A stretch of 64,000 nucleotides of DNA, taken from NCBI GenBank assembly GCA_963775685.1, contig CAVZJV010000001.1, forward strand, positions 32,001 to 96,000. Reading direction: 5' to 3'. Below are positions 31,995-64,000 of this stretch, piece by piece. Under the pieces are notes generated by a model that was not told where the DNA came from, did not search any database, and saw only the letters and a list, made by a program, of their open reading frames with translations. A program made the translations under genes and the position numbers. Source of the stretch: Candidatus Bathyarchaeota archaeon (GTDB taxonomy: Archaea > Thermoproteota > Bathyarchaeia > Bathyarchaeales > Bathycorpusculaceae). Position 1 is the first letter of the stretch; the number at the start of each line of letters is the position of its first letter.

Positions 31995-33848
31995 TTATTC
32001 AGTTGTGGTGTTTTCTTCGTTTTCGTCTGCTTGGTGGGTTTGGTCGCTGTCTTCGTCCGTTGTCAATTCTGAATGCGCCTGCTGAGGCGCTTCTGAAGGG
32101 TGGGCTGGACTGTGGGCCTCCTCCACCATGGAAACGGGTTCGATTGCTGGCTCTTCTAGAACTTTTTCAAGGGTTGTTTCAACTGGAGCTTGCTCTGTTA
32201 CCTCGAAGGATTGGAGTGGAGCTTCTACTTCAGGCTGTTCCTGGGCTGCTTCTGCAACTACATCTGTTGGGTCTACTATTTCTTCTGAAGCTTCAATGTT
32301 GATTGCGGGATTTTCTTTGATATCGATGGTTGGTTGCTCAACTGGGGCTACCTCTTCAACTATATCGGCTGGAGCTTCTTCAACGATTTCAGCAGCTTCT
32401 TCTACTGGTGATTCGATTACTGGAGCTTCTGTGATTGGTTCTTCGACTGCTGGCTCTGCAATTACAGCTTCGTTTATTATTTCAGTTGCTTCTGGCTCAG
32501 CAGAAACTATCGGAGCTTCTTCCATGGGGGCTACTTCAATAATTGAGGTTGCTTCAACCGATGCTACGATTGCTGGAGATTCTTCGGCTGGAGTCTCAAC
32601 TGCCGGAGCCTCAACGATTGGGGCTTCTTCAATTGAGGCGACTTCAATGGTTGGTTGCTCAACTAGAGCTACCTCTTCAACCATTTCGGCTGGAGCTTCT
32701 TCAACGATTGCTGCAGCCTCTTCAATTGGGGCAGTTTCAACTGGACCTTGTTCCATTGTGACAATCTCTACTGGAGTGGCTTCTTCAATAACTGGCTCTG
32801 CTTCTGCAACAACTTCAACCGCTGGGGCTTCCTCAACTATTGCGGGAGCAATTTCGACTAGTGTGTTTTCCATGGGGGCTGCTTCGAGGGGGGCTTCTTC
32901 AATTGGAGCTTGCTCGATTGGAGATGCTTCTTCGACCATTGCGGGAGCGACTTCTTCTGGAGCTTGCTCGACTATGGCTGCTTCTTCAATTATTTGGGCT
33001 GGAGCTTCTTCAACGATTGCAGTAGCTTCTTCTACTGGAGTTTCAATTACTAGAGTTTCTGCAACTGACTTTTCGACTGTTGGAGCGTCTATCGTTGGCG
33101 CCTCGGTTGGGATTTCAACCGCGGGAGCCTCAACAACTGGAGCTTCCTCAACAATTGGTGTACTCTCGATTATTGGAGCGGTTTCGACTTGGGCTTCGAT
33201 GGTGGCTTGCTCAACTTGAACTTCCACTGGGGCCTCTAAAGGGACCGCCATCTCAACTGGGGCTGTCTCAGCTACTGGAGCTTCAGCTGGGGCAGTTTCG
33301 ATTGGCGCTGCTTCAACTGGGCAAGTTTCTATAATTGGAGCTGACTCAACAAGTGTAGCTTCCAATGGGACCTCTAAAGGGGCCGCTTCTACCGCCGTCG
33401 GTTGAACTGCTGGAGCTTCCATTATTGGAGCTGGTTCTGGAGCTTGAATTGGTTGAGCGCTATGAAAAAGTTGGTCTGTTGCCTGTTTGATTACACCGAG
33501 TTCGTTTCTTGTTGTTTCAAGAGTGTTTGAGAGCAGACTTATTTCTCGTGCGTAGCTTTCCTCGTCTATTTCTCCGACTACATGTTGAATTTCGTAGTTA
33601 GCGAGAAGGGTTTCTAAGGTTTTTAATTGGCTTTCTAGTTCGAGGGTTTTCGCCTGCATTTTTTCGCCGAGTTCTTGGCGTTGTTTTTCGATTTCGGCTA
33701 TTGCTGCGGTTATGTCGCCTGTGAATGAGTCGCGTGTGGCTTGTGAGATTTTGCCTGACATAAAGAGGTTGTCTAAGGCATGCTTCTTTTTGTTGGCTAT
33801 TTCGTATTCTTCATTTAATCGTTTAAAGGTATATTTCCATGAAATCAC
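31995..33848 (-). CDS. CdvA-like coiled-coil protein with ~480-aa acidic Glu/Ala/Pro-rich tail
   Basis: N-terminus (ALDNLFMSGKISQ...EIQHVVGEIDEESY) resembles the CdvA coiled coil; likely GTG start at 33848; EEAP-type repeats follow. Confidence 0.65.
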   Translation of the reverse strand: MISWKYTFKRLNEEYEIANKKKHALDNLFMSGKISQATRDSFTGDITAAIAEIEKQRQELGEKMQAKTLELESQLKTLETLLANYEIQHVVGEIDEESYAREISLLSNTLETTRNELGVIKQATDQLFHSAQPIQAPEPAPIMEAPAVQPTAVEAAPLEVPLEATLVESAPIIETCPVEAAPIETAPAEAPVAETAPVEMAVPLEAPVEVQVEQATIEAQVETAPIIESTPIVEEAPVVEAPAVEIPTEAPTIDAPTVEKSVAETLVIETPVEEATAIVEEAPAQIIEEAAIVEQAPEEVAPAMVEEASPIEQAPIEEAPLEAAPMENTLVEIAPAIVEEAPAVEVVAEAEPVIEEATPVEIVTMEQGPVETAPIEEAAAIVEEAPAEMVEEVALVEQPTIEVASIEEAPIVEAPAVETPAEESPAIVASVEATSIIEVAPMEEAPIVSAEPEATEIINEAVIAEPAVEEPITEAPVIESPVEEAAEIVEEAPADIVEEVAPVEQPTIDIKENPAINIEASEEIVDPTDVVAEAAQEQPEVEAPLQSFEVTEQAPVETTLEKVLEEPAIEPVSMVEEAHSPAHPSEAPQQAHSELTTDEDSDQTHQADENEENTTTE

Positions 33849-51644: not shown

Positions 51645-53135
51645 TCAGTGTGAGCTTATGAGTTTTTTCCCGATTTTCAACACTTCTTTTACCATAGTCT
51701 CGAAGTCTTCCCGGCGACTCCTATGATTGGTGTTAGCCACACGAAGAACATATCTGCCATTGATTACTGTCCCTGTTAAAACGGCAATGCCGCTTTCCTG
51801 TAACTCAATGGCAATCTGCTTGTTAACTTCATCAAGCACAATGTCATCTACCTCAGTTGAAACAAACCGGAAGCAGACAATATTAAGGCTAATGGGTGCT
51901 GAAAGCTCCAGATCAGACGAAGCTTCGATTAGTTCGCCCAAATAAAACGCTTGATCGATGTTCTGCTGAATTATCCTAGCGTATTTCTTTGAGCCATGCT
52001 CTTTAATCGACATCCAAGCCTTAAGCGCGTGAAATCCTCGTGAAAGCTCATAACCGTAATCGCTAAACCAAGGTAAATCGCCTCCAGCAACACCGCGTTC
52101 TCCTTTCCCGTGAGCAAGGTAATCAGGCGTTAAAGAGAAAGCCTTACGATGATACTTTTCTTGCTGCACTAGAACACATCCAATTTCGTAGGGCATGTAC
52201 ATCCACTTATGCAGATCCAAAGCCAACGAGTCAGCCAACTCAATTCCCATTACCAATTTTTTTGCTTTAGGCGACAGGCGAGCCCAAGCACCGAACGCTC
52301 CGTCAACATGGAACCAAAGTTTTTCTCTTCTGCATAAGGCAGCCAAGGAATAAAGGTCATCAACGCTTCCGGTGTTTGTTGTGCCTGCAGCTCCAACAAC
52401 GCAGAAAGGCGCGAAGCCCTCTTTGCGGTCTTGTATGATGGCTACATTGAGCTTTGCAACGTCAATTTGGAAATGATCGTTAACCGGCAACAATCGCAGG
52501 GCCTCATTTCCAAGTCCAAGAAGTTCAACCGCTTTCTGAATTGAACTGTGGGCTTCTTCGCTGGCATAAAGCACCATCTTTTCAGGTGAAAGTTGCAGTC
52601 CTTTCTTACGTAGGTCAAAGCTTGCTTTCATGTTGCGCGCGACTGCTAAACCGATCAAGTTAGAAGCTGAGCAACCGCTGGTTAATATTCCGCTTGCTGA
52701 AGCTGGAAATCCAAGCATTTCCTTAATCCAGTCCAGGACCTGTTTTTCAACGTGGTTAGCGATATGGTTGCCCCCTCCATTGTTTGTGTTCATAGAGGTT
52801 GCCAACAGTTCGGCAAAGGCACCAGTTACGGTTCCCGTTCCCAGTATCCAACCCCAAAAGCGTGGGTGGATATTTCCCATTGGATACGGCAACACTTTTT
52901 CCACAAATTCCCGGTAGACTTCTTCAGGTTGTTCAGGATTGAGCGGCACGGGTGCAGTAAACTGGGATTTGACTTGATCGGGAATATTTTGCCAGACAGG
53001 ACGCTCTCGAACAGTTTTCAGGTAATCTATTATGTCGTCAATCATCTTGTGACCTAGCTTTCGAGTAGATTCCCAATCTTTAGGATCTAGCGTTTCTTCA
53101 GTCGTGGCTTTGTTGGTTTCTCGCGTCACATTCAT
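51645..53135 (-). CDS. Group II PLP-dependent (aromatic amino acid-type) decarboxylase
   Basis: HPRFWG, AHSSIQKA, AGTTNTGSVD, HVDGAFG, DLHKW (PLP lysine). Confidence 0.92.
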   Translation of the reverse strand: MNVTRETNKATTEETLDPKDWESTRKLGHKMIDDIIDYLKTVRERPVWQNIPDQVKSQFTAPVPLNPEQPEEVYREFVEKVLPYPMGNIHPRFWGWILGTGTVTGAFAELLATSMNTNNGGGNHIANHVEKQVLDWIKEMLGFPASASGILTSGCSASNLIGLAVARNMKASFDLRKKGLQLSPEKMVLYASEEAHSSIQKAVELLGLGNEALRLLPVNDHFQIDVAKLNVAIIQDRKEGFAPFCVVGAAGTTNTGSVDDLYSLAALCRREKLWFHVDGAFGAWARLSPKAKKLVMGIELADSLALDLHKWMYMPYEIGCVLVQQEKYHRKAFSLTPDYLAHGKGERGVAGGDLPWFSDYGYELSRGFHALKAWMSIKEHGSKKYARIIQQNIDQAFYLGELIEASSDLELSAPISLNIVCFRFVSTEVDDIVLDEVNKQIAIELQESGIAVLTGTVINGRYVLRVANTNHRSRREDFETMVKEVLKIGKKLISSH

Positions 53136-53737
53136 CCTCTGTTTAATCCCTATTGAATACTGGCTTTATTTGTTACTATAAAATTGTTAAATAATTTCAG
53201 CCGAAAGTTAACGTTCCAAACTATTCGCCTCATCTTTTTCTCGGTTTTTTGATTACAAAGCTATGTATGATGCGGTACAGGTTAGTACGAATATAAATTC
53301 CCAAGGCAATGGGGCTATTTTTTGGGGGCTTTTGTTCTAAAAATGGTGCCGATCCTTTGTCTGTTATTGTTGCGGTTCGTAAAGAAGGAAGCCATCTGTA
53401 GGTGGTGCAGATTGAACGCCGTTTGGGGGAGAACTGGATAAGGCTTGGGTAAAGGGGGTATCTAATCATTTGCAGGCTAAAAATGAATTTGTGCTTAGCC
53501 AAGAAAAATTGAAAGATTCAGTTAAACGTGGAGTACTTCTAACGTTACGAGATACATTTGGTAAGAATGCCTTGTCTATTCCAAATAAGTTTACCCAACT
53601 TGTTGAAAGCGTTTATAAATAAGTTTTTTCTCCGGACTTAAAAAAAGACTAACTTGCTTCGTGGGTTTAAGACCGCAGCACAACCACCTCTCCCACGCTT
53701 CAAATATTTTAGAAGAAACAAACACTTCTCGCCTAAC

Positions 53738-53788
53738 AGAAGTAGAAGTAGACCAGAAAATATTTCACTGTTCTTCTACTACCCATAA
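53738..53788 (-). repeat. Island hairpin repeat, subtype A copy 1
   Basis: AGTAGAAGTAGACCAGAAAATATTTCACTGTTCTTCTACTACCCATAA. Confidence 0.9.
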
Positions 53789-53895
53789 AGACCTCTCTTT
53801 GGGGTGGGTAAATCAACAACTTACGTTTTTCCAAACTAATCATTTCAAATTTATTAGTAAGTTTGTATCTGTTTATCATTAGTTCGGTGGGTTTG

Positions 53896-54132
53896 ATGGC
53901 TAAACCTGCGTATTTAGATGAGGACGACCTTAAACTTCTTTTTGAAACTAAACAAAAGTTAGATGAAGCTACCAAACTGATGGGTGAACTTATGGAAACC
54001 ATTGATGTTTTAAATGATCCTGAAATGATGAAAGCCCTCAATCAAGGACAAGAGGACATTAAAGCTGGCAGAATCAAAGATTTGTGGTCGCTTCTAAAGG
54101 ATGAGAAAGCGATGAAAACAAAGAACTCTTGA
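53896..54132 (+). CDS. Putative orphan antitoxin (RelB/YefM C-terminus-like)
   Basis: LMETIDVLNDPEMMKALNQGQEDIKAGRI; no toxin gene follows. Confidence 0.6.
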   Translation: MAKPAYLDEDDLKLLFETKQKLDEATKLMGELMETIDVLNDPEMMKALNQGQEDIKAGRIKDLWSLLKDEKAMKTKNS

Positions 54133-54271
54133 GTTTATTTTGAAAGATGACACTGTTGTGTAAAATTGGTTTGCTTCATTATACCATCATGATTATCTCT
54201 TTGGCCAAGTCTCCTTTTTTTGAATGTAAAAGGGGTAAGGCTTAAGAATTTCGAAAACGCTATGCAATCAT

Positions 54272-54475
54272 ATGCTACGCTATAGAGTTATAATAGAAAA
54301 AGATGAAGATGGCATGCTTGTCGCTAAAGTTCCTGACTTGCCTGGTTGTGCTACCGAGGGAAAAACAAGAGTGGAACTTATGAAAAATGTCAAGGAAGCG
54401 ATACAGGCGTACATTGAGGCGTTAAAGGAACATGGTGAGCCAGTTCCTATTGAAACGGTGCAAGTTAGTGTCTAA
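54272..54475 (+). CDS. hicB: HicB-family antitoxin
   Basis: VIIEKDEDG..VAKVPDLPGCATEGKT..E...NVKEAI. Confidence 0.92.
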   Translation: MLRYRVIIEKDEDGMLVAKVPDLPGCATEGKTRVELMKNVKEAIQAYIEALKEHGEPVPIETVQVSV

Positions 54476-54725
54476 ACTAAAGACGCTTGATTATGATGTT
54501 GTATTAAAGGCTCTCGTAAAAATCGGCTATGTTGTTAATAATCAGAGGGGTAGCCACATCGTTATGCGATTTGTAGACAAACAAAAGTACATTACTTTAT
54601 TTGGCTGTAGAAATAACGAGGTTATGGTGGTTATCCCTGCCCATAAACCTCTGGGAAAAGGTATGTTACGTACCATTATCAGGGAAATTGACCTCTCAGT
54701 TGAGGAATTCAACGAGTTTCTTTGA
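54468..54725 (+). CDS. hicA: HicA-family toxin
   Basis: QRGSH, VVIPAH, GKGMLRTIIRE; overlaps hicB. Confidence 0.88.
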   Translation: MSKLKTLDYDVVLKALVKIGYVVNNQRGSHIVMRFVDKQKYITLFGCRNNEVMVVIPAHKPLGKGMLRTIIREIDLSVEEFNEFL

Positions 54726-54831
54726 AATCTTATTCAATGGAATTGAATTATGAGGGCTCCTATCGGTTTGGGGTTAAGCGGAGGGAATCTAGTTTGTTTC
54801 TGTTAATTAGAATAATCTGGGATTAGACTGA

Positions 54832-54880
54832 AAGTAGAAGTAGACCAGAAATTTTTTCACTGTTCTTCTACTACCCATAA
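54832..54880 (-). repeat. Island hairpin repeat, subtype A copy 2
   Basis: AAGTAGAAGTAGACCAGAAATTTTTTCACTGTTCTTCTACTACCCATAA; 2 loop differences from copy 1. Confidence 0.9.
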
Positions 54881-55109
54881 AAACACCCATCTGTGGTTGG
54901 CGGTTGATTGCTGCCCATTAAAGTTGGATAAAGAAAAACTCACAATAAAAAGTTGCGTTTTAATTGATGTTGTGGGGATTCGAACCTCTACTCGATAGAG
55001 ATGTCACCGCTTGTCTTCTTTTTTTATTTGAATTACTAACTTTCTGAAGATGTGGAGAGATAGATAGAAAAAAAGTTGTAACTGGATTTAGTTTCTTTTG
55101 AAGAACAAT

Positions 55110-55715
55110 CTATCTTGTGATTTCTTTCTCTATCTTTTCAAATAGTTCTACAAAAGTCTGTTCCGGCTGAGCACCTACAATTGTATATTCATCATTTATA
55201 ATAAACGTAGGAACACCAGTAATGTTGCGTTTTTTTGCTTCAGCACAGTTATTTGCATATGTTTTTTGGAGCAAGGGGTCTTCCAACGCATTTTCAACAT
55301 CCTTTTTTGTTAAGCCAATTTTCTTTGCTAAATCTATGATGACCTCGTCATTTCCGATGTCCAGGCAGTCTTCAAAGTAGGCTTTGAATATTGTATCAGT
55401 AAATTCTTCATTTTTGCCCATTATCCGTGAATATTCACCCACTATAAGAGGTCGTCTTGAATTAGGCATCACCATAACATCACAAAAGTTCAAACCGTAC
55501 TCTCTGCCTCTATTTCTCAAATGTTCTTACATTTCATTTGTTTGAGAAATGTATTTTCTTAAATCGACGCCGCAGATGGGCGTTTCTGGATGAATTTCAA
55601 TTCCAACGTGTTCAAGCTCAATATCAAACTGATTTTTGAGTTTATCAATAATAGCTTTGCCAAGGTAACAAAAGGGGCAAATGTAATCTGAAAACATTCT
55701 AATTTTTATCTTCAT
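55110..55715 (-). pseudogene. DsbA/FrnE-family oxidoreductase with one in-frame TAA at 55527-55529
   Basis: SDYICPFC and ITGVPTFII..GAQP lie in the same frame, separated only by a single stop (NEM*EHLR). Confidence 0.85.
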
Positions 55716-55723
55716 TAAATCGC

Positions 55724-56536
55724 CTATTGACTGTCTGGTTTTTTTCCTTCTTCTGTTTGCTTAGGTAACGAGTGCGCTTCTGTTGAAAAAGCACCGACGG
55801 TTTTAATCAGTTTTAGTCCTCTTTGAGTTATGACGTAGTCTCCTTTGGATGCTTCTTGCGCCATCAGATTTGCATCAATAAGCTTCTTTAGATGAAATGC
55901 TAAGTGGCCTGCCTTTAGATCTACTGTTCTGGACAATTCTGAGAAGCTTCGTTTTCCTTCGCTAACTGAAAATAGAATCTTGAGCCGTGAATGGTTTGAG
56001 AGCGGTTCAAACAGTGAATCAATGAGAAATTGAGTGTCAATGACTTCAGGGTTCTTGGTTTTGTTACTGCCTTCAACTAATACAATTTCATGGTAGGCTC
56101 TTTTTTCACGCTTTAGCTTCTTATCAAAGTTGGAGAAACAGTTTCCGCATTGCTGACCTTTGGTCTTTTCAACCATTAACTCGTTTTCAGCTATTTTATC
56201 ATCTAAGTCTGCAAGAGCTTCTTTTGTTCCAGATTGTTTGATAACTTGTGTGTTTTCCTCTATTGTGTTTTTGTAATGCTCAAGGCATTTGTTTCTGTTT
56301 TGGCAATCTTCTTTGAGCAACGTTGCAATGTCTTGATTTAGAGATTGCGACCTGTGGCCAGCATAGACCGATAGGTGATTTTGTATAAGAGTATCTTCAA
56401 TTGCACGAAGACGTTCCTTCAAAACGGTTTCTTCTACCCTGTTCATGTCTGTTCTTAAGCCTTTAATCTCCATCTTCAACTCAGCGATTGCACCAATTAT
56501 GTAATCGTATGATGAATCCTTGCCTGTGTGAGTCAA
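55724..56536 (-). CDS. ArsR-type wHTH regulator with Cys-containing coiled-coil N-terminus
   Basis: EPLSNHSRLKIL, SFSELS, GHLAFHLKKL, YVITQRG; CxxxxxC and CxxC motifs. Confidence 0.8.
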   Translation of the reverse strand: MTHTGKDSSYDYIIGAIAELKMEIKGLRTDMNRVEETVLKERLRAIEDTLIQNHLSVYAGHRSQSLNQDIATLLKEDCQNRNKCLEHYKNTIEENTQVIKQSGTKEALADLDDKIAENELMVEKTKGQQCGNCFSNFDKKLKREKRAYHEIVLVEGSNKTKNPEVIDTQFLIDSLFEPLSNHSRLKILFSVSEGKRSFSELSRTVDLKAGHLAFHLKKLIDANLMAQEASKGDYVITQRGLKLIKTVGAFSTEAHSLPKQTEEGKKPDSQ

Positions 56537-56632
56537 ATACTGTGCTTCCCTTTCATTTGCTGAGTATATTCTACTTCCCTAAAAGTATATTAGAGTTTTG
56601 CAGTTATGCTTACATTATAGGATGTGTGAATT

Positions 56633-57031
56633 TTGGTTAGTATCCCTAAAGATGTAATGGATGTTTTAAATGCAAGTGATTCAGCGAAAATGATAGCAAC
56701 TATCGACGATAAAGGCATTCCAAACGTAGTTCCATTATGGTTTGTAGTAGTAGACCCTGAAACTATTGTGTTCGCAGAAGTTTTCATCAAGAAGACAAAA
56801 GAAAACCTTGAAAAAAACAAGCAAGTTGCTCTTGCAGTGTTCAAAGGACCAATGACAGGCTACCAACTAAAGGGAACATTCAGTGGTTTCCAAACAAGTG
56901 GCCCAATTTTCGATGACTTCGCAAAGAAGAGCATGGAAACTATGAAAATAAAAATAAAAAGTGTTGGCATAATAAAAGTCACTGAAGTCTTCTCTGCTTC
57001 GCCAGGACAAGGCAGCAAAAAACTAGCATAA
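56633..57031 (+). CDS. Pyridoxamine 5'-phosphate oxidase-like FMN-binding protein
   Basis: IATIDDKGIPNVVP, KTKENLEKN, GYQLKG, SASPG. Confidence 0.85.
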   Translation: MVSIPKDVMDVLNASDSAKMIATIDDKGIPNVVPLWFVVVDPETIVFAEVFIKKTKENLEKNKQVALAVFKGPMTGYQLKGTFSGFQTSGPIFDDFAKKSMETMKIKIKSVGIIKVTEVFSASPGQGSKKLA

Positions 57032-57290
57032 CCTTGTCAAATGCGGACTTACTTTCTTTCCCAGTTTTTTATCCTGGAAAACAAATTCCTTTGATTCAAA
57101 TCTAAGCGTTTAAGATTGGCTTATGGGCAGCAGTTGCAGTTGTTGGTGTTGAGCCATTTTTTGTGCCACTTAAAGTGTGCACTCGGAGTAAGAATGTTTT
57201 ATTGAATTAATTCAATCACTCGGATTGTTGGTATGCCCTAAATTATCTTGTGTTACTTTGTGTTATGTGAGGTAATTGGAGGCTGCTTTA

Positions 57291-57527
57291 ATGGTGAAAA
57301 ATGTTATCGATTTAAACGAAAGGGACAGCCGAGTAATCAACATAGTTAAGGCAAAGTATGGGCTTAAAGATAAAAGCCAAGCTTTAAGCATAATTATCCA
57401 GCATTATGAAAAGTGTGAGCTTGAACCTCAGCTTAGACCCGAGTTTGTGAAGGAAATAGCGGACACCGTTAAGAGGGGTAAATTTGTCAAGGTTAAGGAT
57501 TTCGCGGAAGAGTATGGACTAAAGTGA
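57291..57527 (+). CDS. DUF2683-like antitoxin, copy 2
   Basis: Near-identical to 47373-47609, including the upstream leader. Confidence 0.75.
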   Translation: MVKNVIDLNERDSRVINIVKAKYGLKDKSQALSIIIQHYEKCELEPQLRPEFVKEIADTVKRGKFVKVKDFAEEYGLK

Positions 57528-57611
57528 TTGCTTGAATAGTCTTGAAATCGAGGAAGAGGTTTCTAAAACTTTTCACAACCTGCTTCAGTTAGCTTACCCA
57601 AGACCCTCCAT

Positions 57612-58124
57612 TTACATTTTGTCTATTAATTCCATTATCTTAGCGTAGGTTTCCACATTGCAGCGCCAACCTAAAGAAATCATATCCTTAACAGCCCCTT
57701 TAGCTTGCTCTTTTAACAGTAGCCCTTCAAAAACCGCCCGTGCCAAAATGTAGGGTGTGCCCACATAGCTGATTTTGTATATTTTAGCGGTTTTTCTTGC
57801 TACTTCATCATCAATAACCGCCAATCCTTTATGCTCTTTGGCAAGCGCTAAAACCTCTGCGTCGGCGGCATGAAGCCCCTGTGTCTTGGACAATTGTGAA
57901 AGGAACAGTTTGTCTTTGGGTTTGTAAAGTTCAAAAACTCCGTTTTCGAAGAGTTTTTCTAGCGCAATTGCATCTGGAACTCCTTTTTGTTTGCCTTTAT
58001 CTACAACTTCAGTTTTCACCAGTAGAGAGGTCAACTTTTTCTCTTGAAGGTTTTCAATAATTCCGCTTAACCCTACTTTGGATAGATATATTAAAGGGGT
58101 GGAATTGAAAACTAACGGTTTCAA
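57612..58124 (-). CDS. DUF3368 PIN-like toxin
   Basis: VFNSTPLIYL, DAEVLALA, IDDEVARK, GTPYIL. Confidence 0.85.
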   Translation of the reverse strand: MKPLVFNSTPLIYLSKVGLSGIIENLQEKKLTSLLVKTEVVDKGKQKGVPDAIALEKLFENGVFELYKPKDKLFLSQLSKTQGLHAADAEVLALAKEHKGLAVIDDEVARKTAKIYKISYVGTPYILARAVFEGLLLKEQAKGAVKDMISLGWRCNVETYAKIMELIDKM

Positions 58125-58477
58125 TTTTGTTCCGCCGCTGATGCTGATGTAAATTCGTTCTCGACTTCTTCTGGATCAAACCTGACCCATTCAACGTTAT
58201 GTTGTTTTAATAGATCTGCAAATTCCCAAAGAGAGAGTTTTGCAATGTCTGCTGCTTGGGCAAAAGTGACTTTGCCTTTACTTAAGAGTTCTAAGGCGGT
58301 TTGCTTTCGCCATTCGGTTATGCCTGTTTGAAGAAGATTTCGGACAACTGTTGCTTTATCAAGTTTTTCTTTTTTTATGATTTCAGAAATTTCTTTATCT
58401 AATTCAGCTGGGACGCGAACTGCTAATGGTTTGAGTGTCAAACACCTGTCACCGTATACAATAGATGCCATTTGCAT
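58121..58477 (-). CDS. UPF0175-family antitoxin (RHH plus HTH); true start probably nearer 58440
   Basis: LAVRVP, DKATVVR, GKVTFAQAADIAKLSLWEF. Confidence 0.8.
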   Translation of the reverse strand: MQMASIVYGDRCLTLKPLAVRVPAELDKEISEIIKKEKLDKATVVRNLLQTGITEWRKQTALELLSKGKVTFAQAADIAKLSLWEFADLLKQHNVEWVRFDPEEVENEFTSASAAEQN

Positions 58478-58662
58478 ACATAAGTATTTTGCATAAAATT
58501 ATGCGATAACACGTAATTTTCTCTTTAAACTCTGTCTACATTTTTTATTAAAAATAGGTGTTAAGAGTAAAGAAGTTGTCTCAAAAAAGCTTAATCACAT
58601 AGTTTTATCAAAAGTATGTGGTTAGCCACTAAAATAATTTTCAAAGCCCACTTTTAATTGAA

Positions 58663-58706
58663 AGAAGAAGTAGACCAGAAAATATTTCACTGTTCTTCTA
58701 CTACCT
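58663..58706 (-). repeat. Island hairpin repeat, subtype A copy 3
   Basis: AGAAGAAGTAGACCAGAAAATATTTCACTGTTCTTCTACTACC. Confidence 0.9.
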
Positions 58707-58866
58707 CTATAAGCTTAGAAAATTTGGCTGGTTAAAAGAAGACAGTAACCCCGTTTGGCAATCGAGCGTACCTGATAGGCTTACATATAGAAAGTCTGTT
58801 CATTCAGAACTTGAGAACAAACTATAGAAGAAGAACGGAGTGTCAAGAAAAAATTCACTGTCTAAG

Positions 58867-58908
58867 ATGGGTAGTAGTCGTCTGGCAAGCTCTATAGACG
58901 ACTACTTC
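58867..58908 (+). repeat. Island hairpin repeat variant
   Basis: ATGGGT-AGTAGTCGTCT-ggcaagctctat-AGACGACTACT, an 11-bp perfect inverted repeat with the ATGGGTAG foot. Confidence 0.7.
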
Positions 58909-59078
58909 TAATGTTTGCCGATGTTGAAAAAGCGTGATTTCCTGCGGCAAGTATTTTTTCTTCTTTTTTCAACTTTAAGCAAATTTACTATTGGATTCAC
59001 CAGATAATGGGTAAACGAGATGTAAGGGCTTTTTCTGGATGGACCTCCGATAAGCCGTATGATATCGGCGGTACAAAA

Positions 59079-59867
59079 ATGAGTGAAGTAGTCGTTGGGT
59101 TGGATGTTCACCTGAAGAATACTCAGGTGACAGTTATGAAGAATGACTTAATTGGAGAAATAGTGAAAAAAGAAAGAGTAGGAACTAACAAAGCTGAACT
59201 GCAGAAGTCTTTAGCATCCGTTCCTAAAGGCAGTAAGGTAGCTTTGGAATCGGTTGGTTCCTGTTGGCCATGGATTGATTTTCTAGAAGAGCTTGGATAC
59301 GAAGTATTGCTTGCTAATCCAGTGAAAGTGAAGCTGCGAGCGGAAGATATTAAGAATGATAAGGTAGATAGTAGGACGTTGGCTGAATTGGTTAGGGTGA
59401 ACTGGTTGCCAACATGTTACATACCGCCAGCTGAGCTTCGTTGGCTGCGTAGTCTATTGCGTCATAGATCTTATCGAACGAGACTTTCTACCAGTGTTAA
59501 AAATAGAAGCAAATCTGAGTTTAGAAAGCGAGATATCCAGTTGGATGTTAATCTTGGAACTATTAAAGGAAGGAAAGCGGCTGGTATGCTTGATGTTTTT
59601 GAGGTTAATCAGAATATTGAACTGCTTGACTTGATTGTAAGACAAAACAAGGAAGTGGAAAAGCAGCTTTTGAAAAAGTATGGAAAGATCAAGCCTGTTG
59701 AGTTATTGACGTCTATTCCCGAGATTGGGGGTCATCTTGCATGTGTTTATAGGGACGCTTTTAAAAGGAAAGGGAAGGGTGCTGACGCGATTAAGGTTGT
59801 TGCGCGTAAGTTAGTAAATGTGGTTTGGGCTGTTTGGATGTATGAGAAAGAGTTCATGGTAAAGTAG
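59079..59867 (+). CDS. IS110 DEDD transposase/recombinase lacking the core of the C-terminal Tnp domain
   Basis: GLDVH, ALES, ANP, KNDKVDS (DEDD); SIPEIG runs directly into ...AIKVVARKL without the GLxP...SG segment. Confidence 0.88.
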   Translation: MSEVVVGLDVHLKNTQVTVMKNDLIGEIVKKERVGTNKAELQKSLASVPKGSKVALESVGSCWPWIDFLEELGYEVLLANPVKVKLRAEDIKNDKVDSRTLAELVRVNWLPTCYIPPAELRWLRSLLRHRSYRTRLSTSVKNRSKSEFRKRDIQLDVNLGTIKGRKAAGMLDVFEVNQNIELLDLIVRQNKEVEKQLLKKYGKIKPVELLTSIPEIGGHLACVYRDAFKRKGKGADAIKVVARKLVNVVWAVWMYEKEFMVK

Positions 59868-60030
59868 GACAAACAACAGGGGATGTCTTCTGTCTTCTTC
59901 TGCGGTTTGACCGCTTTCGGGTAGAGTGGAGTGTTCCTTTGTTGTTGGCTGAAGCCGATGTGCGACTTGGTTCGCTGATAGGAGAATGCTGTCTGAAATA
60001 CAGGTTTGAGTAAAAGGATTTAAGAAAGAA
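59868..60030 (+). ncRNA. Putative bridge/seekRNA
   Basis: Stem 59871-59884 / 59933-59947 encloses TCTTCTTCT (59893-59901), hairpin GCGGT-TTG-ACCGC and GGGTAGA (59919-59925), which match the two insertion-site flanks; ATAGGA (59978-59983) matches the element's right end. Confidence 0.65.
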
Positions 60031-60098
60031 ATGAGGTGAGATGGTTAGGTAGTCGGGGTCTGTTTAGAGCTGGCCTTCGTCTGGTCTTCTTACATAGG

Positions 60099-60146
60099 AG
60101 AAGAAGAAGCGTAATTTTTTCATTCTTCTTCTTTTGACGCTGATCT
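60099..60146 (+). repeat. Island hairpin repeat, subtype B (target of the IS)
   Basis: AGAAGAAGAAgcgTAATTTTTTCAtTCTTCTTCTTTTGACGCTGATCT. Confidence 0.8.
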
Positions 60147-60194
60147 TAATGTGCATAGCTTGCCTTTATAGAAGTTTAGGTGTTCGGTTTACGG

Positions 60195-61697
60195 TTAATT
60201 TGTGGTGGTTGTGAAGGTCTTCTTGTCTTTCTTGCATAGTTCATGCACAAGGTCTCTTCCCATTAGGCAAACTGTACTGATTCCAAATGTTCCTCCAGCC
60301 CATTGTCCAACCATGTAAAAATTCTGCAATCCAGGTAATGTTTTGCTAACACCCTTCTTATTTATTTCTTTAGCTAGTTCTTTAGGTGGCGGCCAAGGCT
60401 GAGCAAATCCACGATAACCGCCCGTCCAATGCTCCACAGAAACCGGTGTTACAACATCGAAAGCTTCGATTTGTTTTGTGAATCCAGGAAAACGCTTCTC
60501 TAATCTCGTAGCAACCATATCCGCTAACTGTTGCTTGTGTTCTCTGTAATGTTCTTGATTTGCTGATAGTTTTTTCCAATACTCATAGTTCGAGTCAAAA
60601 TTAATTTTGATAACACATTTGCCAACTGGTGCTAATGATTGATCAAAGTTTAATATTTCAATGTCGAGTCTATCTTTTTCTTTTTCCTCTACAGTTATTG
60701 GTTGGTCCAAAAAGAGCACCATTGCATGGGGTTCGTTCGAAAAACTTCTGTTAACTCCATACCAAATCTCAAGCCCAAAAGGTTGAGTCTTGGGACATGA
60801 ATTGTAGTAAGAGTGGATGAGTTTATTAGAATATTTTTCTTTTAGCATTCCAAATATTGTTGAATAGCCATCAGCTGCCGAAATTACTAAGTCTGCAAAA
60901 TGTTCCGATCCATCTTCAAGCACAATTCCTTTCGCTACGTCGTTTTCAATGATTATCTTCTTTACTTTTGAATTATAGCGTACTTCTCCACCGAGTTCTT
61001 TGTAGCGTTTCTCAATGTTGCGTGAAAGAGCTGCTGAACCTCCGATTGGCCATCCTGCGTCAGCTATACTTAACATCGAGAGAAAAATTATGGGCACTAT
61101 TGTAGGTACTTCTTCTATATCGTATTGAATTGTGGAGAATGCTTTTTTTAGAAATGGATCTGTGAATTTTTGGGCGTATTCTTTTAAATTAATTTTTCCA
61201 TACTTCATAAAGAAACTCATTAGTGGCAGAATTTTCAGTTTTCCGCCTACACCGCCAAACATTGCGCCAAATACATCTTGACCGCTGAATTTCCGAATTG
61301 CTTTTGTGAATTCTTCGATTAGTCTTGTATCGGCTGGTGAGAGTTCTTTCATGTGTTTTTCCAGTTTTTCGATATCTGAGTAGACTGTGAAAGCTTTTCC
61401 GTTTACGTCTTCAACTTGGACAAATTCATTAAAAGCGTAGGCGTTGGTTCCTTTTAGTGCTCCAAGTTCTTGCCATATTTTATTGTATAAGGTTCCTGTT
61501 GGTTTGGGGGAAACACCAAAGACGTTGTGAACTGCATAATCAAAATGGTAATCATTGCGTTTCCATGAAACACAGACGCCGCCGGGTTTGTTTTGCATTT
61601 CGCAGATTTGGGTTTTATATCCGTTCATTTGGCTGTAGCAGCCAGTGGATAAGCCGGCTAAGCCACCGCCTATAATTATTATGGATTTTTCTGCCAT
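60195..61697 (-). CDS. Phytoene desaturase-family FAD-dependent oxidoreductase
   Basis: IIGGGLAGL, KPGG, WPIGGS, TLPGLQNFYMVGQW. Confidence 0.85.
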   Translation of the reverse strand: MAEKSIIIIGGGLAGLSTGCYSQMNGYKTQICEMQNKPGGVCVSWKRNDYHFDYAVHNVFGVSPKPTGTLYNKIWQELGALKGTNAYAFNEFVQVEDVNGKAFTVYSDIEKLEKHMKELSPADTRLIEEFTKAIRKFSGQDVFGAMFGGVGGKLKILPLMSFFMKYGKINLKEYAQKFTDPFLKKAFSTIQYDIEEVPTIVPIIFLSMLSIADAGWPIGGSAALSRNIEKRYKELGGEVRYNSKVKKIIIENDVAKGIVLEDGSEHFADLVISAADGYSTIFGMLKEKYSNKLIHSYYNSCPKTQPFGLEIWYGVNRSFSNEPHAMVLFLDQPITVEEKEKDRLDIEILNFDQSLAPVGKCVIKINFDSNYEYWKKLSANQEHYREHKQQLADMVATRLEKRFPGFTKQIEAFDVVTPVSVEHWTGGYRGFAQPWPPPKELAKEINKKGVSKTLPGLQNFYMVGQWAGGTFGISTVCLMGRDLVHELCKKDKKTFTTTTN

Positions 61698-61813
61698 TGA
61701 AGTCCACCCAGAACATTATTGCTAATTACAAAAGTCGCAATTAAACTTTAACAAAAAGGGAACCTTAGCTCAATAACTTGTTACATTGTTTGAATTTTAC
61801 ATTTTTTAATTTG

Positions 61814-61857
61814 GAAGTAGTTGTCGAAGCTGAAAATTTCAACTAGACTGCTACTTC
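61814..61857 (+). repeat. Island hairpin repeat variant
   Basis: GAAGTAGTTGTC-gaagc-TGAAAATTTCA-acta-GACTGCTACTTC. Confidence 0.7.
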
Positions 61858-61876
61858 TCTTTATTTGAAGAACTTT

Positions 61877-62194
61877 TTACTGATTACCTTTGCAATGTGT
61901 TTCAAAATGACTTGTTAACGAGCAGAAGAAGACTAAATTTTTCAATCTTCTTCTTCTTTTGACACCTGATCTATTGGCGCACATATTTATTTTAGCAAAG
62001 TCAAGGTAGAAGTTGTTGTTCACCTGAAATTTCAATCTTTCTGGGGCAAACTTTTCACGGTATTTCGCGTAAGCCCTTTTGCGGGCAAACAACCAAATGG
62101 AAACGTTGCTGAAGGATATTCCTTCAACTTTGATTTCTTCTTGATTATTGTAATCTTCAAAGAGAATCTTGTAATCTAGTTTGGGGTAAGACAT
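61877..62194 (-). pseudogene. 5' fragment of an unknown gene that runs out into a hairpin repeat
   Basis: About 70 protein-like codons, then VKRRRRLKNL encoded by the repeat itself. Confidence 0.45.
61924..61972 (+). repeat. Island hairpin repeat, subtype B copy 2
   Basis: AGAAGAAGAcTAAATTTTTCAaTCTTCTTCTTCTTTTGACACCTGATCT; shares its flank with the 60099 copy. Confidence 0.8.
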
Positions 62195-62390
62195 TGCGAC
62201 TCACTCTGGATAAGCGGTATTGTTTTAAATTCCTCATATAATTACTCAAACATTTTTATGACAATCTTTGATCAGAACGGCATCACCGTTAATATCGGGG
62301 TGGGATAGTTTTTGAGCCGAAAGAGAGCTGGGAATGCCACCACTACGACTATAGCTGCCTCTGTGATGAGCGAGAATAAAGGTGGATAAA

Positions 62391-62539
62391 ATGGCTGAAG
62401 AAAAAGAATGTAGAAAATGTAAGGTTTGTGGGAAGGAGATCAGTGCCCAAGACATGAAAGCTTCGATGGTATGTGTTGGGAGTGCTGGGATGACCAACTA
62501 ACTGAGGAATCTGACAGTATGTTTGACGAATTAATGTAG
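62391..62539 (+). pseudogene. Small CxxC...CxxC acidic zinc-finger gene with one frameshift
   Basis: MAEEKECRKCKVCGKEISAQ / HESFDGMCWECWDDQLTEES. Confidence 0.55.
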
Positions 62540-62553
62540 AGGTAGGTGTTGTT

Positions 62554-62697
62554 TTGTGGCTGTGTAAGAATTGTGGACACGATAATCCTGATGATGCGGT
62601 AGCCTGCGAGGTCTGTGGTGCCTTAATGGATGAAATCGGTGACTCTGGCGATAACAAAGATTCAGAAGACCTCTTTTTCGATGATGAAGGCATCTAA
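62554..62697 (+). CDS. RanBP2-like zinc-ribbon microprotein (47 aa)
   Basis: WLCKNCGHDNPDDAVACEVCG plus acidic tail; AGGTG Shine-Dalgarno before a TTG start. Confidence 0.65.
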   Translation: MWLCKNCGHDNPDDAVACEVCGALMDEIGDSGDNKDSEDLFFDDEGI

Positions 62698-62761
62698 GGA
62701 CTGTGGAAGGTTTCTTGGAGTTTAGTTATGCTTTCTGGATTTGGCTGGCGCACTATGCGGT

Positions 62762-62965
62762 TTATAGTGATGGTGTTTTTGCGTGTCTTTCTGAATGCAA
62801 TTGTCCGCCCGTTGCCCAATTATTTTTTGGCGCTTCATAAATCACTATATGCACTGCTTCCTTAGGAACCCCCATTTCTTCAAAAACTTTAGTTATCCCT
62901 TCAACTGTTTTCTTCTTATTCTCAGAAGTCATTCCTTCCCACACAGAAACTTGAACTATCGGCAT
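62762..62965 (-). CDS. 4-oxalocrotonate tautomerase family protein
   Basis: Pro-1 (MPIV), ENKKK, EAVHIVIYEAPKNNWATGG. Confidence 0.9.
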   Translation of the reverse strand: MPIVQVSVWEGMTSENKKKTVEGITKVFEEMGVPKEAVHIVIYEAPKNNWATGGQLHSERHAKTPSL

Positions 62966-63069
62966 TACATTTTACCTCAAATAACTGTGATATTTCGTCC
63001 AATTAATGTGTTCTTATCGAGTGTGCACGTGATAGTGTTAAAATTCAAGTGTTCTTACCAAGTGTAAGT

Positions 63070-63762
63070 ATGCCTAAGATACGAGCAATCCTGTTTGACC
63101 TTGACAATACGTTAATTGACTTTATTCGTATGAAAGAGGAATCTTGCAGAGCAGCGGTTAAGGCGATGGTAGCGTCAGGATTGCAGATGAAGGAAGACCA
63201 AGCGTTTGAAATTTTACTGAATACCTACTTTGACGTGGAAATAGAATCAAACATAGCCTTCTCAGAGTTTCTAAAAAGCATCGATCAGTTTAATCACAAA
63301 ATACTTGCTTCAGGCATCAACACCTACCTAAAAACAAAAAACAAATTCCTAAAACCCTATCCTAATGTCAAACCAGTCCTTGGAAAGCTAAAAAGAAAAG
63401 GCATTTTTCTCTCAATTGTTACCGATGCACCAAAAACCAAGGCTTACCAACGATTATTAGGTATGGGAATAGAACCTTACTTCAAATTTGTAGTTGGATA
63501 CGAAGATACAAACAAAAGCAAACATACCGGCTTACCACTTCTGCGGGCTTTGGAAATACTGAGAAAAGAATGCCCAAACATAGAAAACTCGGAAATTCTA
63601 ATGGTCGGCGATTCAATAGAAAAAGACATAGTTCCAGCAAAAGACCTTGGGCTAAGAACAGCACTCGCCAAATATGGGCAAAAAACCCCTGAAAGTGGAT
63701 TCGCAGATTACCAGCTAGTAAATTTCATAGAAATCATCGATATTGTCGAATCAATCCAGTAA
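63070..63762 (+). CDS. HAD-superfamily hydrolase
   Basis: LFDLDNTLID, IVTD, MVGDSIEKD motifs. Confidence 0.88.
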   Translation: MPKIRAILFDLDNTLIDFIRMKEESCRAAVKAMVASGLQMKEDQAFEILLNTYFDVEIESNIAFSEFLKSIDQFNHKILASGINTYLKTKNKFLKPYPNVKPVLGKLKRKGIFLSIVTDAPKTKAYQRLLGMGIEPYFKFVVGYEDTNKSKHTGLPLLRALEILRKECPNIENSEILMVGDSIEKDIVPAKDLGLRTALAKYGQKTPESGFADYQLVNFIEIIDIVESIQ

Positions 63763-64000
63763 GCCAAGACATCACTATAGTAGCCAAAAATAAATTATAA
63801 CTAAACAATATTTCCCATTTTTTGATGTTCAGTTAGCTTCTCGTTTGCCAAAGTATAAGATCAATTTTCTTAGTATCAGATATCCCCGAATTCGGAACTC
63901 TATTGCCAATTCGGCAAGTTGAGTTTTGCCTTTTATAATTGTTCTTGCAGGTCGGGGTGTGTAGCTGAAATGTCCTAGCAGAAGGATTTTGAGAATGAAT

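Follow-up and report, generated by a model that had tools for sequence, protein, structure and literature searches.

Which kind of mobile element has settled at the foot of a hairpin repeat in a Candidatus Bathyarchaeota genome, and does the element itself carry the instructions for choosing that site? The stretch concerned, referred to below as the window, comprises 64,000 nucleotides (positions 32,001 to 96,000 of contig CAVZJV010000001.1 in assembly GCA_963775685.1) and holds, at window positions 59013-60098 on the forward strand, a 1086-bp element of the IS110 family with the layout of the IS1111 group, i.e. a transposase gene followed by a non-coding region (NCR) of 231 nt. An earlier note, made from the letters of the window alone, had read it as an RNA-guided recombinase programmed against an archaeal repeat family. 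We computed the limits of the element, the family and truncation of its protein, the RNA-type structure of the NCR, the covariation of its guides with the insertion flanks and with the element ends, and an uninterrupted version of the site. On these grounds we regard it as very probable that the window element is a fossil IS110-family insertion sequence (IS) of IS1111 organization, whose NCR guides still spell its own insertion site, and that the intact members of its family are RNA-guided.

Relatives were gathered by a protein search, which matched 19 of 61 related genomes, by a DNA search with the 231-nt NCR, which matched 11 of the 120 genomes of the genus, and by scans of genome contigs (14 loci) and metagenome contigs (80 loci kept of 148 relatives). 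A locus was accepted if both conserved end motifs lay 1100-1450 nt apart, the flanks playing no part in this criterion, and a 475-nt deletion derivative (L036) was added via BLAST. After removal of same-place duplicates (among them L071 and L077; L058 occupies the same place as L035), the sample consisted of 37 unique complete elements, the window copy included, from Bathyarchaeia genomes and metagenomes. Left out were L121-L146 (26 loci with 28-42% identity to the query), as well as L061 and 26 of the loci L067-L120, in which one or both recognizable ends are absent from the available sequence.

The ends of the window element align with those of the 36 relatives. Its left junction reads ...CCAGATAATGGGT/AAACGAGATGTAAGG, or with a longer piece of flank ...ATAATGGGT/AAACGAGATGTAAGG (the slash marks the junction), and its right junction ...CTTCTTACATAGG/AGAAGAAGAAGCGTAATTTTTTCATTCTTCTTCTT, which continues as AGAAGAAGAAG-CGTAATTTTTTCA-TTCTTCTTCTT. 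Its immediate neighbors at the foot of this hairpin are GGGT on the left (59009-59012, the left-target bases matched by the 3' target guide described below) and AGAAGAAGAAG on the right. Read directly at these junctions, removal of 59013-60098 joins ATGGGT to AGAAGAAGAAG, as the earlier note had proposed, and limits of 59015-60100 are equally valid because the core dinucleotide is common to both junctions. The sub-terminal inverted repeats that had also been claimed are present 7 nt inside the left end (ATGTAAG, 59020-59026; ATGTAA(A)G in relatives) and 3 nt inside the right end (CTTACAT, 60089-60095). They measure 7 bp here and 6-7 bp in the relatives, which places them at the lower limit of the 7-17 bp given for IS1111 elements by Durrant et al. 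(PMC11208160). The 37 elements are united by a left end of the form AGA(C/T)GG.ATGTAAA and a right end of the form CTT(A/T)CAT(A/G)xx, and among these homologous copies different ends, the case that the earlier note had held against itself, were not encountered. In 36 of the 37 an AG core, usually AGA, stands at both junctions, the exception being the left-junction copy in the window (59013-59014), which reads AA where all 36 relatives have AG. As far as the junction sequences go, AG at both sides is the pattern of a recombination core and not of a target duplication. The distribution of non-coding DNA, with 231 nt downstream of the transposase gene versus 66 nt upstream of its start codon at 59079, is that of IS1111 elements.

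An uninterrupted homologous site was detected in a genome of the same genus (L158), where a homolog of the left-flank module (90.6% identity to 58960-59012) runs straight into GGGTAGAAGAAGAAG-loop-CTTCTTCTTCTTT. This locus contains the exact 13-mer GGGTAGAAGAAGA uninterrupted, with a single AG, and the insertion point is therefore fixed as one with a shared core and no duplication. L158 has the left module and the hairpin in common with the window locus, not the right-hand gene. At a further locus, L157, the same left-flank module is followed by CTGAT-AG-AAGAAGA, which is the site type of L068. A comparison of 2.9 kb around the element with the 120 genomes of the genus yielded no syntenic empty locus; the closest right flank (92%, in G102) and the closest left flank (92%, in G023) lie on separate contigs. 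No circle junction and no contig joined across the element was seen in four metagenome runs, which showed relatives and not the window copy, and two apparent joints in metagenome contigs skip 287 and 75 nt (one contig, 29-nt sides, 90% likeness).

How, then, might such a site have been chosen? Two segments of the NCR on the forward strand spell it. The 5' target guide (59893-59901) reads TCTTCTT+CT, the reverse complement of the core AG and the right target AAGAAGA, and the 3' target guide (59919-59925) reads GGGT+AG+A, in the same sense as the left target and core, the full target of the window copy being GGGT-AG-AAGAAGA. The same rule applies across the relatives: the 5' strand of the first loop of the predicted RNA is the reverse complement of the core plus right flank, and the 3' strand repeats the left flank plus core. 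For instance, the target TCTGAT-AG-AACAACAA of L067 is matched by the 5' guide TTGTTGTT-CT and the 3' guide TCTGAT-AG, the target AATTT-AG-GGACAAGC of L090 by GCTTGTCC-CT and AATTT-AG, and the target CTTGGTCA-AG-AAACTTT of L039 by AAAGTTT and CTTGGTCA-AG, while in L041 the right flank AAACCTT is faced by AAGGTTT. Even a one-base difference between the left flanks of L105 and L075 (TGTGCCA versus TGTGTCA) is mirrored in their guides. In the 36 elements for which 12 nt of flank exist on either side (L085, whose contig stops 2 nt beyond the element, did not enter the permutation test), the 5' guide agrees with the reverse complement of its own AG plus right target over an uninterrupted run of at least 6 nt in 26 cases, and the 3' guide with its own left target plus AG over such a run in 32. 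Over 30 distinct guide pairs the 5' guide matches its own site by 6.6 nt on average versus 3.75 for the other sites, and the 3' guide by 6.8 versus 3.48; for each guide, none of 20,000 permutations of the guide-site pairing reached the observed sum.

Such matches might be put down to chance in low-complexity sequence, the site being selected by protein-DNA contacts or by hairpin shape alone. Indeed, the window target is a GAA repeat, and the single arm GAAGAAGA occurs 403 times in the genome; moreover, the 5' guide match falls below 6 nt in 10 of the 36 elements (3 nt in L092; 4 nt in L086, L088 and L108), and L036 is a weak case with matches of 5 and 3. Against this, guides also match non-repetitive targets (GGCTTGTCC-CT, AAGGTTT, TGTGCCA-AG and TCTGAT-AG) and the permutations never attained the observed agreement with either guide, which leaves chance an exceedingly improbable explanation. 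Covariation of the guides with the insertion flanks had been set beforehand as the comparison on which the idea of the earlier note could founder, and it came out in favor of that idea. The arrangement of the guides, with the complement of the top strand 5' of the complement of the bottom strand and the two overlapping at the core, is that of IS1111 elements; the same order, with overlap at the insertion point, is reported for the seekRNAs of ISEc11, ISPa11 and ISKpn4 (PMC11187229). In the metagenomes, a relative of the NCR with 3 differences in 155 nt has a G>A change at 59920 that turns GGGT into GAGT, and the same two runs contain a contig end with the left junction ...GGTTAACGAGT/AGACGGGATG, whose flank ends in ...CGAGT; the two, which lie on separate contigs, may belong together.

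A further segment of the right end deserves mention beside the target guides. The 6 nt that precede the right inverted repeat, at 60081-60088 and the corresponding position in relatives, show a tendency to complement the opening bases of the right target (TCTTCT with AGAAGA, GTTTCT with AGAAAC, CCCT with AGGG). Scored as a third guide, this segment matches its own target at 2.69 versus 1.93 of 6 positions for other targets, and 7 of 20,000 permutations reach the observed value; 12 elements share GGTCTT here despite very different right targets. The signal may reflect shared ancestry, or a third target-reading segment.

A joint fold of the 37 NCRs with RNAalifold points to a guide RNA of the seekRNA or bridge-RNA type, about 126 nt long, at 59868-59993 on the forward strand. 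In the consensus a terminal helix GAC/GUC (59868-59870 with 59991-59993) closes two arms. The first, predicted to bind the target (59873-59945), has three stacked helices, an internal loop and a capping hairpin GCGG-TTTGA-CCGC (59902-59914; helix 5, 100% paired, with compensatory changes in 3 of its 4 pairs). The second, predicted to bind the donor (59947-59990), has a 3-bp helix, an internal loop and a capping hairpin GCGA-CTTGGT-TCGC (59962-59975; helix 7, 100% paired). This agrees with the earlier description of a long stem (59873-59890 with 59928-59945) that encloses TCTTCTTCT at 59893-59901, the small hairpin at 59902-59914 and GGGTAGA at 59919-59925. Beyond the two arms, a third conserved stem, AGGU/GCCU, lies in the right end (60034-60076; helix 8, 96.5% paired). 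In the 30 pairs of the model, 97.6% of 1078 cells hold a standard pair, a share that drops to 39-54% once the 3' partners are shifted 1-3 columns; changes on both sides, i.e. compensatory ones, are seen in 15 of the 30 pairs, and none of 500 shuffled controls reached the observed value on any of five measures. Several positions are mostly G-U (e.g. 14:82, 93:138 and 191:236), which suits the forward strand but not the opposite one. At the level of sequence covariation, the family thus appears to possess a non-coding RNA with target- and donor-complementary loops. Such a shape agrees with the account of Durrant et al. (PMC11208160), who predict a right-end RNA with two or multiple loops in 93% of IS1111 elements. 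A scan of 52000-64000 against Rfam 15 gave no family match for the NCR up to E 1, the sole match in that interval being a weak one to snoR130 inside the open reading frame (ORF), at E 0.56. A helix GATAG/CTGTC, which had appeared in a fold of 13 sequences, was dropped by the fold of 37, and L053 breaks it yet keeps its guide-to-end match.

The second loop seems to read the element's own ends. Its 3' strand contains the conserved 3' donor guide ATAGG+AG+A (ATAGGAGA, 59978-59985, forward strand), running in the sense of the right IS end CATAGG followed by the core, and in 36 of the 37 elements this strand, GATA[xx]AGAA, tracks the element's own right end CATA[xx]. The variable positions occur in the states GG, AG, GA (in L069 and also in the partial L040) and CG (in L089); the exception is L068, whose right end CATGGG is accompanied by a guide GATAGG. 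On the 5' strand, a candidate donor guide may be placed tentatively at 59954-59958 (GCCGA here, GCCGT in many relatives): GCCG(T/A) complements ACGG of the left end, and the segment reads GCCAT in L041, L043 and L078, in which the left end is AGATGG. The earlier proposal of a donor match ATAGGA...GTTT survives in its first half, in that ATAGG+AG is conserved and follows the right end, but not in its second; the GTTT near 60003, present in the window, falls in a stretch that is variable and gapped among the relatives, and we rejected it as a donor guide.

Is the window copy itself a working recombinase? The ORF finder had called an ORF at 59007-59867 (286 aa), but alignment with the relatives places the true start at the ATG at 59079 (MSEVVVGLDVH...), the ATG at 59007 being part of the flank. 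The remaining product, a transposase remnant of 262 aa plus stop (59079-59867, forward strand), has only the DEDD_Tnp_IS110 domain: it matches PF01548 (E 4.3e-17, 62.8 bits, cut-off 29), indicating that the RuvC-like N-terminal domain is present, and gives no match to PF02371 (Transposase_20), the C-terminal serine domain. A single in-frame gap of 69 aa at about 59729/59730 takes out most of Transposase_20, including the GLVPxVxQSG serine motif. Six intact relatives of 329-331 aa, L035 and L039 among them, hold both domains and the motif GLVP(K/S/R/T)V(R/H/S)QSG. In this they resemble IS1111-family transposases, which have 330-350 aa and for which a motif GL-P----S(t)G is given (PMC11187229). 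L035 scores 189.4 bits against the NCBIfam model NF033542, 'IS110 family RNA-guided transposase', and passes its cut-off of 140; the intact relatives also match the IS621 transposase in PDB (8wt6) with E 7.5e-7 over about 200 aa. Their nearest annotated proteins in a plasmid collection are haloarchaeal IS110-family members, including one of the ISHvo9 family (32-35% identity over 95-99% of the length). At the left end of the window copy there are, in addition, two G>A changes relative to the 36 relatives, AA for the core AG and ACGAG for ACGGG. We consider the window copy a degraded IS110 member because PF02371 is absent, the 69-aa gap covers the serine motif and the NF033542 score is below the cut-off; as judged from its sequence it is an immobile, non-autonomous relic. 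The idea of an RNA-guided recombinase is hence supported for the relatives, through covariation and family membership, but not for the window copy. For annotation, the ORF should be recorded as a truncated IS110-family transposase and not as a gene starting at 59007.

A decayed copy could in principle still be moved in trans by another transposase, guided by an intact RNA of its own. Both ends and the NCR are for the most part preserved, the guides have kept their match to the site, and copies with internal deletions exist elsewhere (L036 of 475 nt and L042 of 102 nt). Nevertheless, DNA, protein and Pfam searches of its own assembly (3.06 Mb, 96.9% complete) found no second copy and no other IS110-family domain, the matches beyond the element being the hairpin-only loci L002 and L003. 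One of the two G>A changes falls within the core, and L036 and L042 are apparently at the same site in two genomes, suggesting old immobile relics. Mobility in trans is thus very unlikely, and an immobile fossil is the reading that we retain. As regards the two derivatives themselves (L036 in G029 and L042 in G132), their placement suggests stepwise decay of one old insertion. In the same two genomes there are also four copies (L047, L050, L051 and L052) of a unit of about 415-440 nt that consists of the last ~135 nt of the IS, i.e. donor loop and right end, fused to unrelated upstream sequence; it has neither the IS left end nor the target loop, and each copy adjoins an AG-AAA(C/G)TTTGA(C/T) target.

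Several points tell against an RNA-guided origin of this fossil and have to be weighed. The window copy cannot act alone, given the deleted serine motif, the lack of a second IS110-family domain and a score of 101.7 bits against the NF033542 cut-off of 140. In addition to the 10 elements with short 5' guide matches, subfamilies differ by 0-1 nt in how the 5' guide is registered against the core, and one of them has a single extra base between the right-flank complement and CT. The permutation test collapses identical guide pairs, with residual relatedness remaining, and the 5' donor guide is only tentatively placed, L098 (GCCAT with AGACGGC) not fitting. No RNA sequencing run with the window stretch was present among the listed runs, only soil-metagenome DNA in which it has a small share. 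The single-sequence fold of 59868-60098 is not unusually stable (z = -0.38), and for this reason, together with the low complexity of the target, the window alone could not settle the guide question, whereas the comparison of relatives does.

Covariation alone cannot separate an RNA guide from a guide of single-stranded DNA. One may accordingly envisage that, in single-strand transposition, the forward strand of the right part folds and pairs with its target in the manner of IS200/IS605 elements, with no RNA involved: both the covariation and the helices, tolerant of G-T or G-U pairs, would be identical for such a strand, and there is partial complementarity between the right sub-terminal segment and the target next to it. 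Yet the transposase is an IS110-family DEDD protein, of the type termed RNA-guided in NCBIfam and related to IS621, whereas the enzymes of IS200/IS605 elements are HUH proteins unrelated to the IS110 family. RNA co-purification and RNA reprogramming have, furthermore, been shown for the IS110 family (PMC11187229; PMC11208160). We therefore give the DNA-guide account very little weight, and favor an NCR guide that would act as RNA, on the basis of homology and covariation.

The closest parallels are the seekRNAs of the IS1111-family elements ISEc11 and ISXne4 described by Siddiquee et al. (2024, PMC11187229). These share with the present family an NCR downstream of the transposase gene, sub-terminal inverted repeats, a transposase of ~330 aa with GL-P----SG (329-331 aa in our intact relatives) and two short matches to the target, which overlap where the element inserts and of which the top-strand complement lies 5' of the other. 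At 73 nt, the target arm is also near the size of the short seekRNAs of 82-96 nt. The differences lie in the archaeal (Bathyarchaeia) host, in inverted repeats of only 6-7 bp, in the dead state of the window copy and in the donor-reading nucleotides, which are evident in the second loop here; moreover, ISEc11 versus ISXne4 represents one natural re-targeting, as opposed to the 30 distinct guide pairs of our sample. The bridge RNA of IS621 (Durrant et al. 2024, PMC11208160; PDB 8wt6) likewise works with a DEDD-plus-serine recombinase and has one loop for the target and one for the donor, both of which read the two strands around a 2-nt core. In IS621, however, the RNA is encoded upstream of the transposase gene, with its guides in reverse order; the present family has AG as its core, and the protein similarity noted above is remote. 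The assignment to IS1111 is made on sequence features, namely layout, inverted repeats, transposase size and motif, and guide order. Haloarchaeal IS110 elements of the ISHvo9 type are alike in being archaeal and in having the nearest annotated proteins, which align along almost their whole length; the low identity sets them apart, and for Hvo9 Siddiquee et al. report no clear target logo (PMC11187229). Transfer between archaeal lineages is hinted at by L061, from a metagenome-assembled genome of Aenigmatarchaeota, another archaeal phylum, which has a transposase 61% identical and a similar left end AGACGGCATGTTGAG.

By analogy with the bacterial ISEc11 and IS621, we infer transcription, RNA-protein binding, a circular intermediate and the chemistry of strand exchange for the intact members. 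Their 3' NCR would be transcribed on the forward strand, probably by read-through from the transposase gene, giving an RNA of ~126 nt that would adopt a three-way fold containing two internal loops. The 5' strand of the target loop would pair with the top strand of the target over the core AG and ~7 nt rightward, and the 3' strand with the bottom strand over ~4-8 nt leftward plus the core; the 3' strand of the donor loop would read the right IS end and core, and a short 5' segment probably the left end. The RNA-bound DEDD/serine transposase would then carry out recombination at the AG core between the junction of the circular IS and the target, so that AG would remain on either side of the insertion and the target would not be duplicated. 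The window copy would have been aimed at GGGT-AG-AAGAAGA, the 5' foot of a hairpin with a GAA/CTT stem, and have landed there, to decay later through the loss of 69 aa of the catalytic C-terminal domain and the two G>A changes at the left end.

IS621 inserts into the hairpins of repetitive extragenic palindromic (REP) sequences. REP sequences as IS targets are cited in Durrant et al. (PMC11208160), and both the IS1111-attC elements and the REP-targeting ISPpu9 (PMC12288879) resemble the window element in inserting at a defined position of a hairpin-forming repeat. In the present family only one subfamily targets hairpins, and in the genome of the window copy these form a small family of ~10 strict loci. 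The target hairpin of the window copy, AGAAGAAGAAG-CGTAATTTTTTCA-TTCTTCTTCTT, occupies 60099-60133 on the forward strand (core AG at 60099-60100, right target AAGAAGA at 60101-60107). Two unoccupied near-targets, GGGTAGTAGAAGA, lie on the reverse strand at the feet of related hairpins (53772-53784 and 54864-54876; C1:85772 and C1:86864 in genome numbering), each identical to the 13-mer in 12 of 13 positions, as had been claimed; the foot ATGGGTAG is likewise present in these two copies and at 58867. The pattern GAAGAAGA-N6-34-TCTTCTTC has 20 matches on both strands of the genome, i.e. 10 loci, versus 2 for a direct-repeat control, and 13-mer sites number 0 exact, 15 with one mismatch and 129 with two, several of them being such hairpins. 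Among elements with a right target beginning AAGAAG or AAGAAC, 4 of the 6 with enough flank lie at GAA/CTT-stem hairpins, L036 and L068 being the two that do not, and the flanks of L091 and L085 run off their contig ends. Other subfamilies have unrelated targets (GTCA-AG-AAACTTTGAC, TGTGTCA-AG-AAATCTTTAC, AAAAA-AG-GGAAA). The notion of an element programmed against a repeat family is hence apt for the subfamily of the window copy, but does not extend to the others. The hairpin family itself is modest and may be of a terminator-like or a bacterial interspersed mosaic element (BIME)-like mosaic nature.

The surroundings of the element offer some further observations. The flanks (58700-59012 and 60099-60167) are a mosaic of hairpins with GAA/CTT or GTAGAAG stems and conserved linker modules, pieces of which, 35-190 nt long, recur with 75-94% identity in many genomes of the genus; the linker modules beside the hairpin are single-copy in their own genome and recurrent in the other genomes of the genus. 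As far as sequence can tell, these flanks may represent either a conserved non-coding locus or a mosaic of the BIME type. Upstream of the element, at 57612-58477 on the reverse strand, lie two small neighboring ORFs (118 and 170 aa) with a 4-nt overlap, in an arrangement that looks like a toxin-antitoxin pair. In this region, positions 1-400 of the 2.9-kb flank query have counterparts of 70-85% identity in many genomes of the genus and one further counterpart in their own genome (C14:1071310-1071694).

The right end may also have a function in expression. A conserved A/T motif, AAAGGATTTAAGA, lies at 60013-60025 on the forward strand; in the alignment of NCRs the relatives show only TTTAAG, TTTAAA or TTTATA, and a conserved GAGGTGA follows at 60033-60039. 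More speculatively, 60013-60025 could be a box resembling a TFB recognition element (BRE) and TATA box that points out of the right end; by the archaeal promoter consensus, it varies as a TATA box would. Were this so, the box would drive transposase and guide RNA only after circularization, insertion at the 5' foot of a terminator-like hairpin (a CTT stem, then T's) would stop the read-out when the element is integrated, and the right sub-terminal segment, whose complementarity to the core and right target is weak, could be a third target reader of a kind not described for IS1111. That the family practices such circle-dependent expression, with an outward box, a stop at a terminator-like hairpin and possibly a third target-reading segment, we consider a doubtful proposition.

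The RNA-guided mechanism of IS110 and IS1111 elements has been known since 2024, and to our knowledge RNA-guided recombination has been demonstrated experimentally only for bacterial ones. Archaeal IS110 recombinases have been catalogued (662 are listed in bioRxiv 10.1101/2024.06.21.599552), ISfinder-wide predictions exist (PMC11208160), and the intergenic regions adjacent to IS110 in bacteria and archaea have been clustered, with covariation analysis, in a 2026 preprint (10.64898/2026.10.21.760802). The surveys of Durrant et al. and of this preprint may already contain the present family unnamed. Our literature search, which did not extend to the supplements of surveys, yielded no paper that links Bathyarchaeota to IS110 or Bathyarchaeia to bridge RNA. 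The mechanism is not new; the value of the family is as a natural specificity series in archaea with many re-targeted relatives, in which 30 natural guide-target pairs are combined with one conserved 126-nt scaffold and small recombinases of 329-331 aa. It provides a ready-made table for testing archaeal bridge or seek recombinases, and a handle on how guides are re-written in nature.

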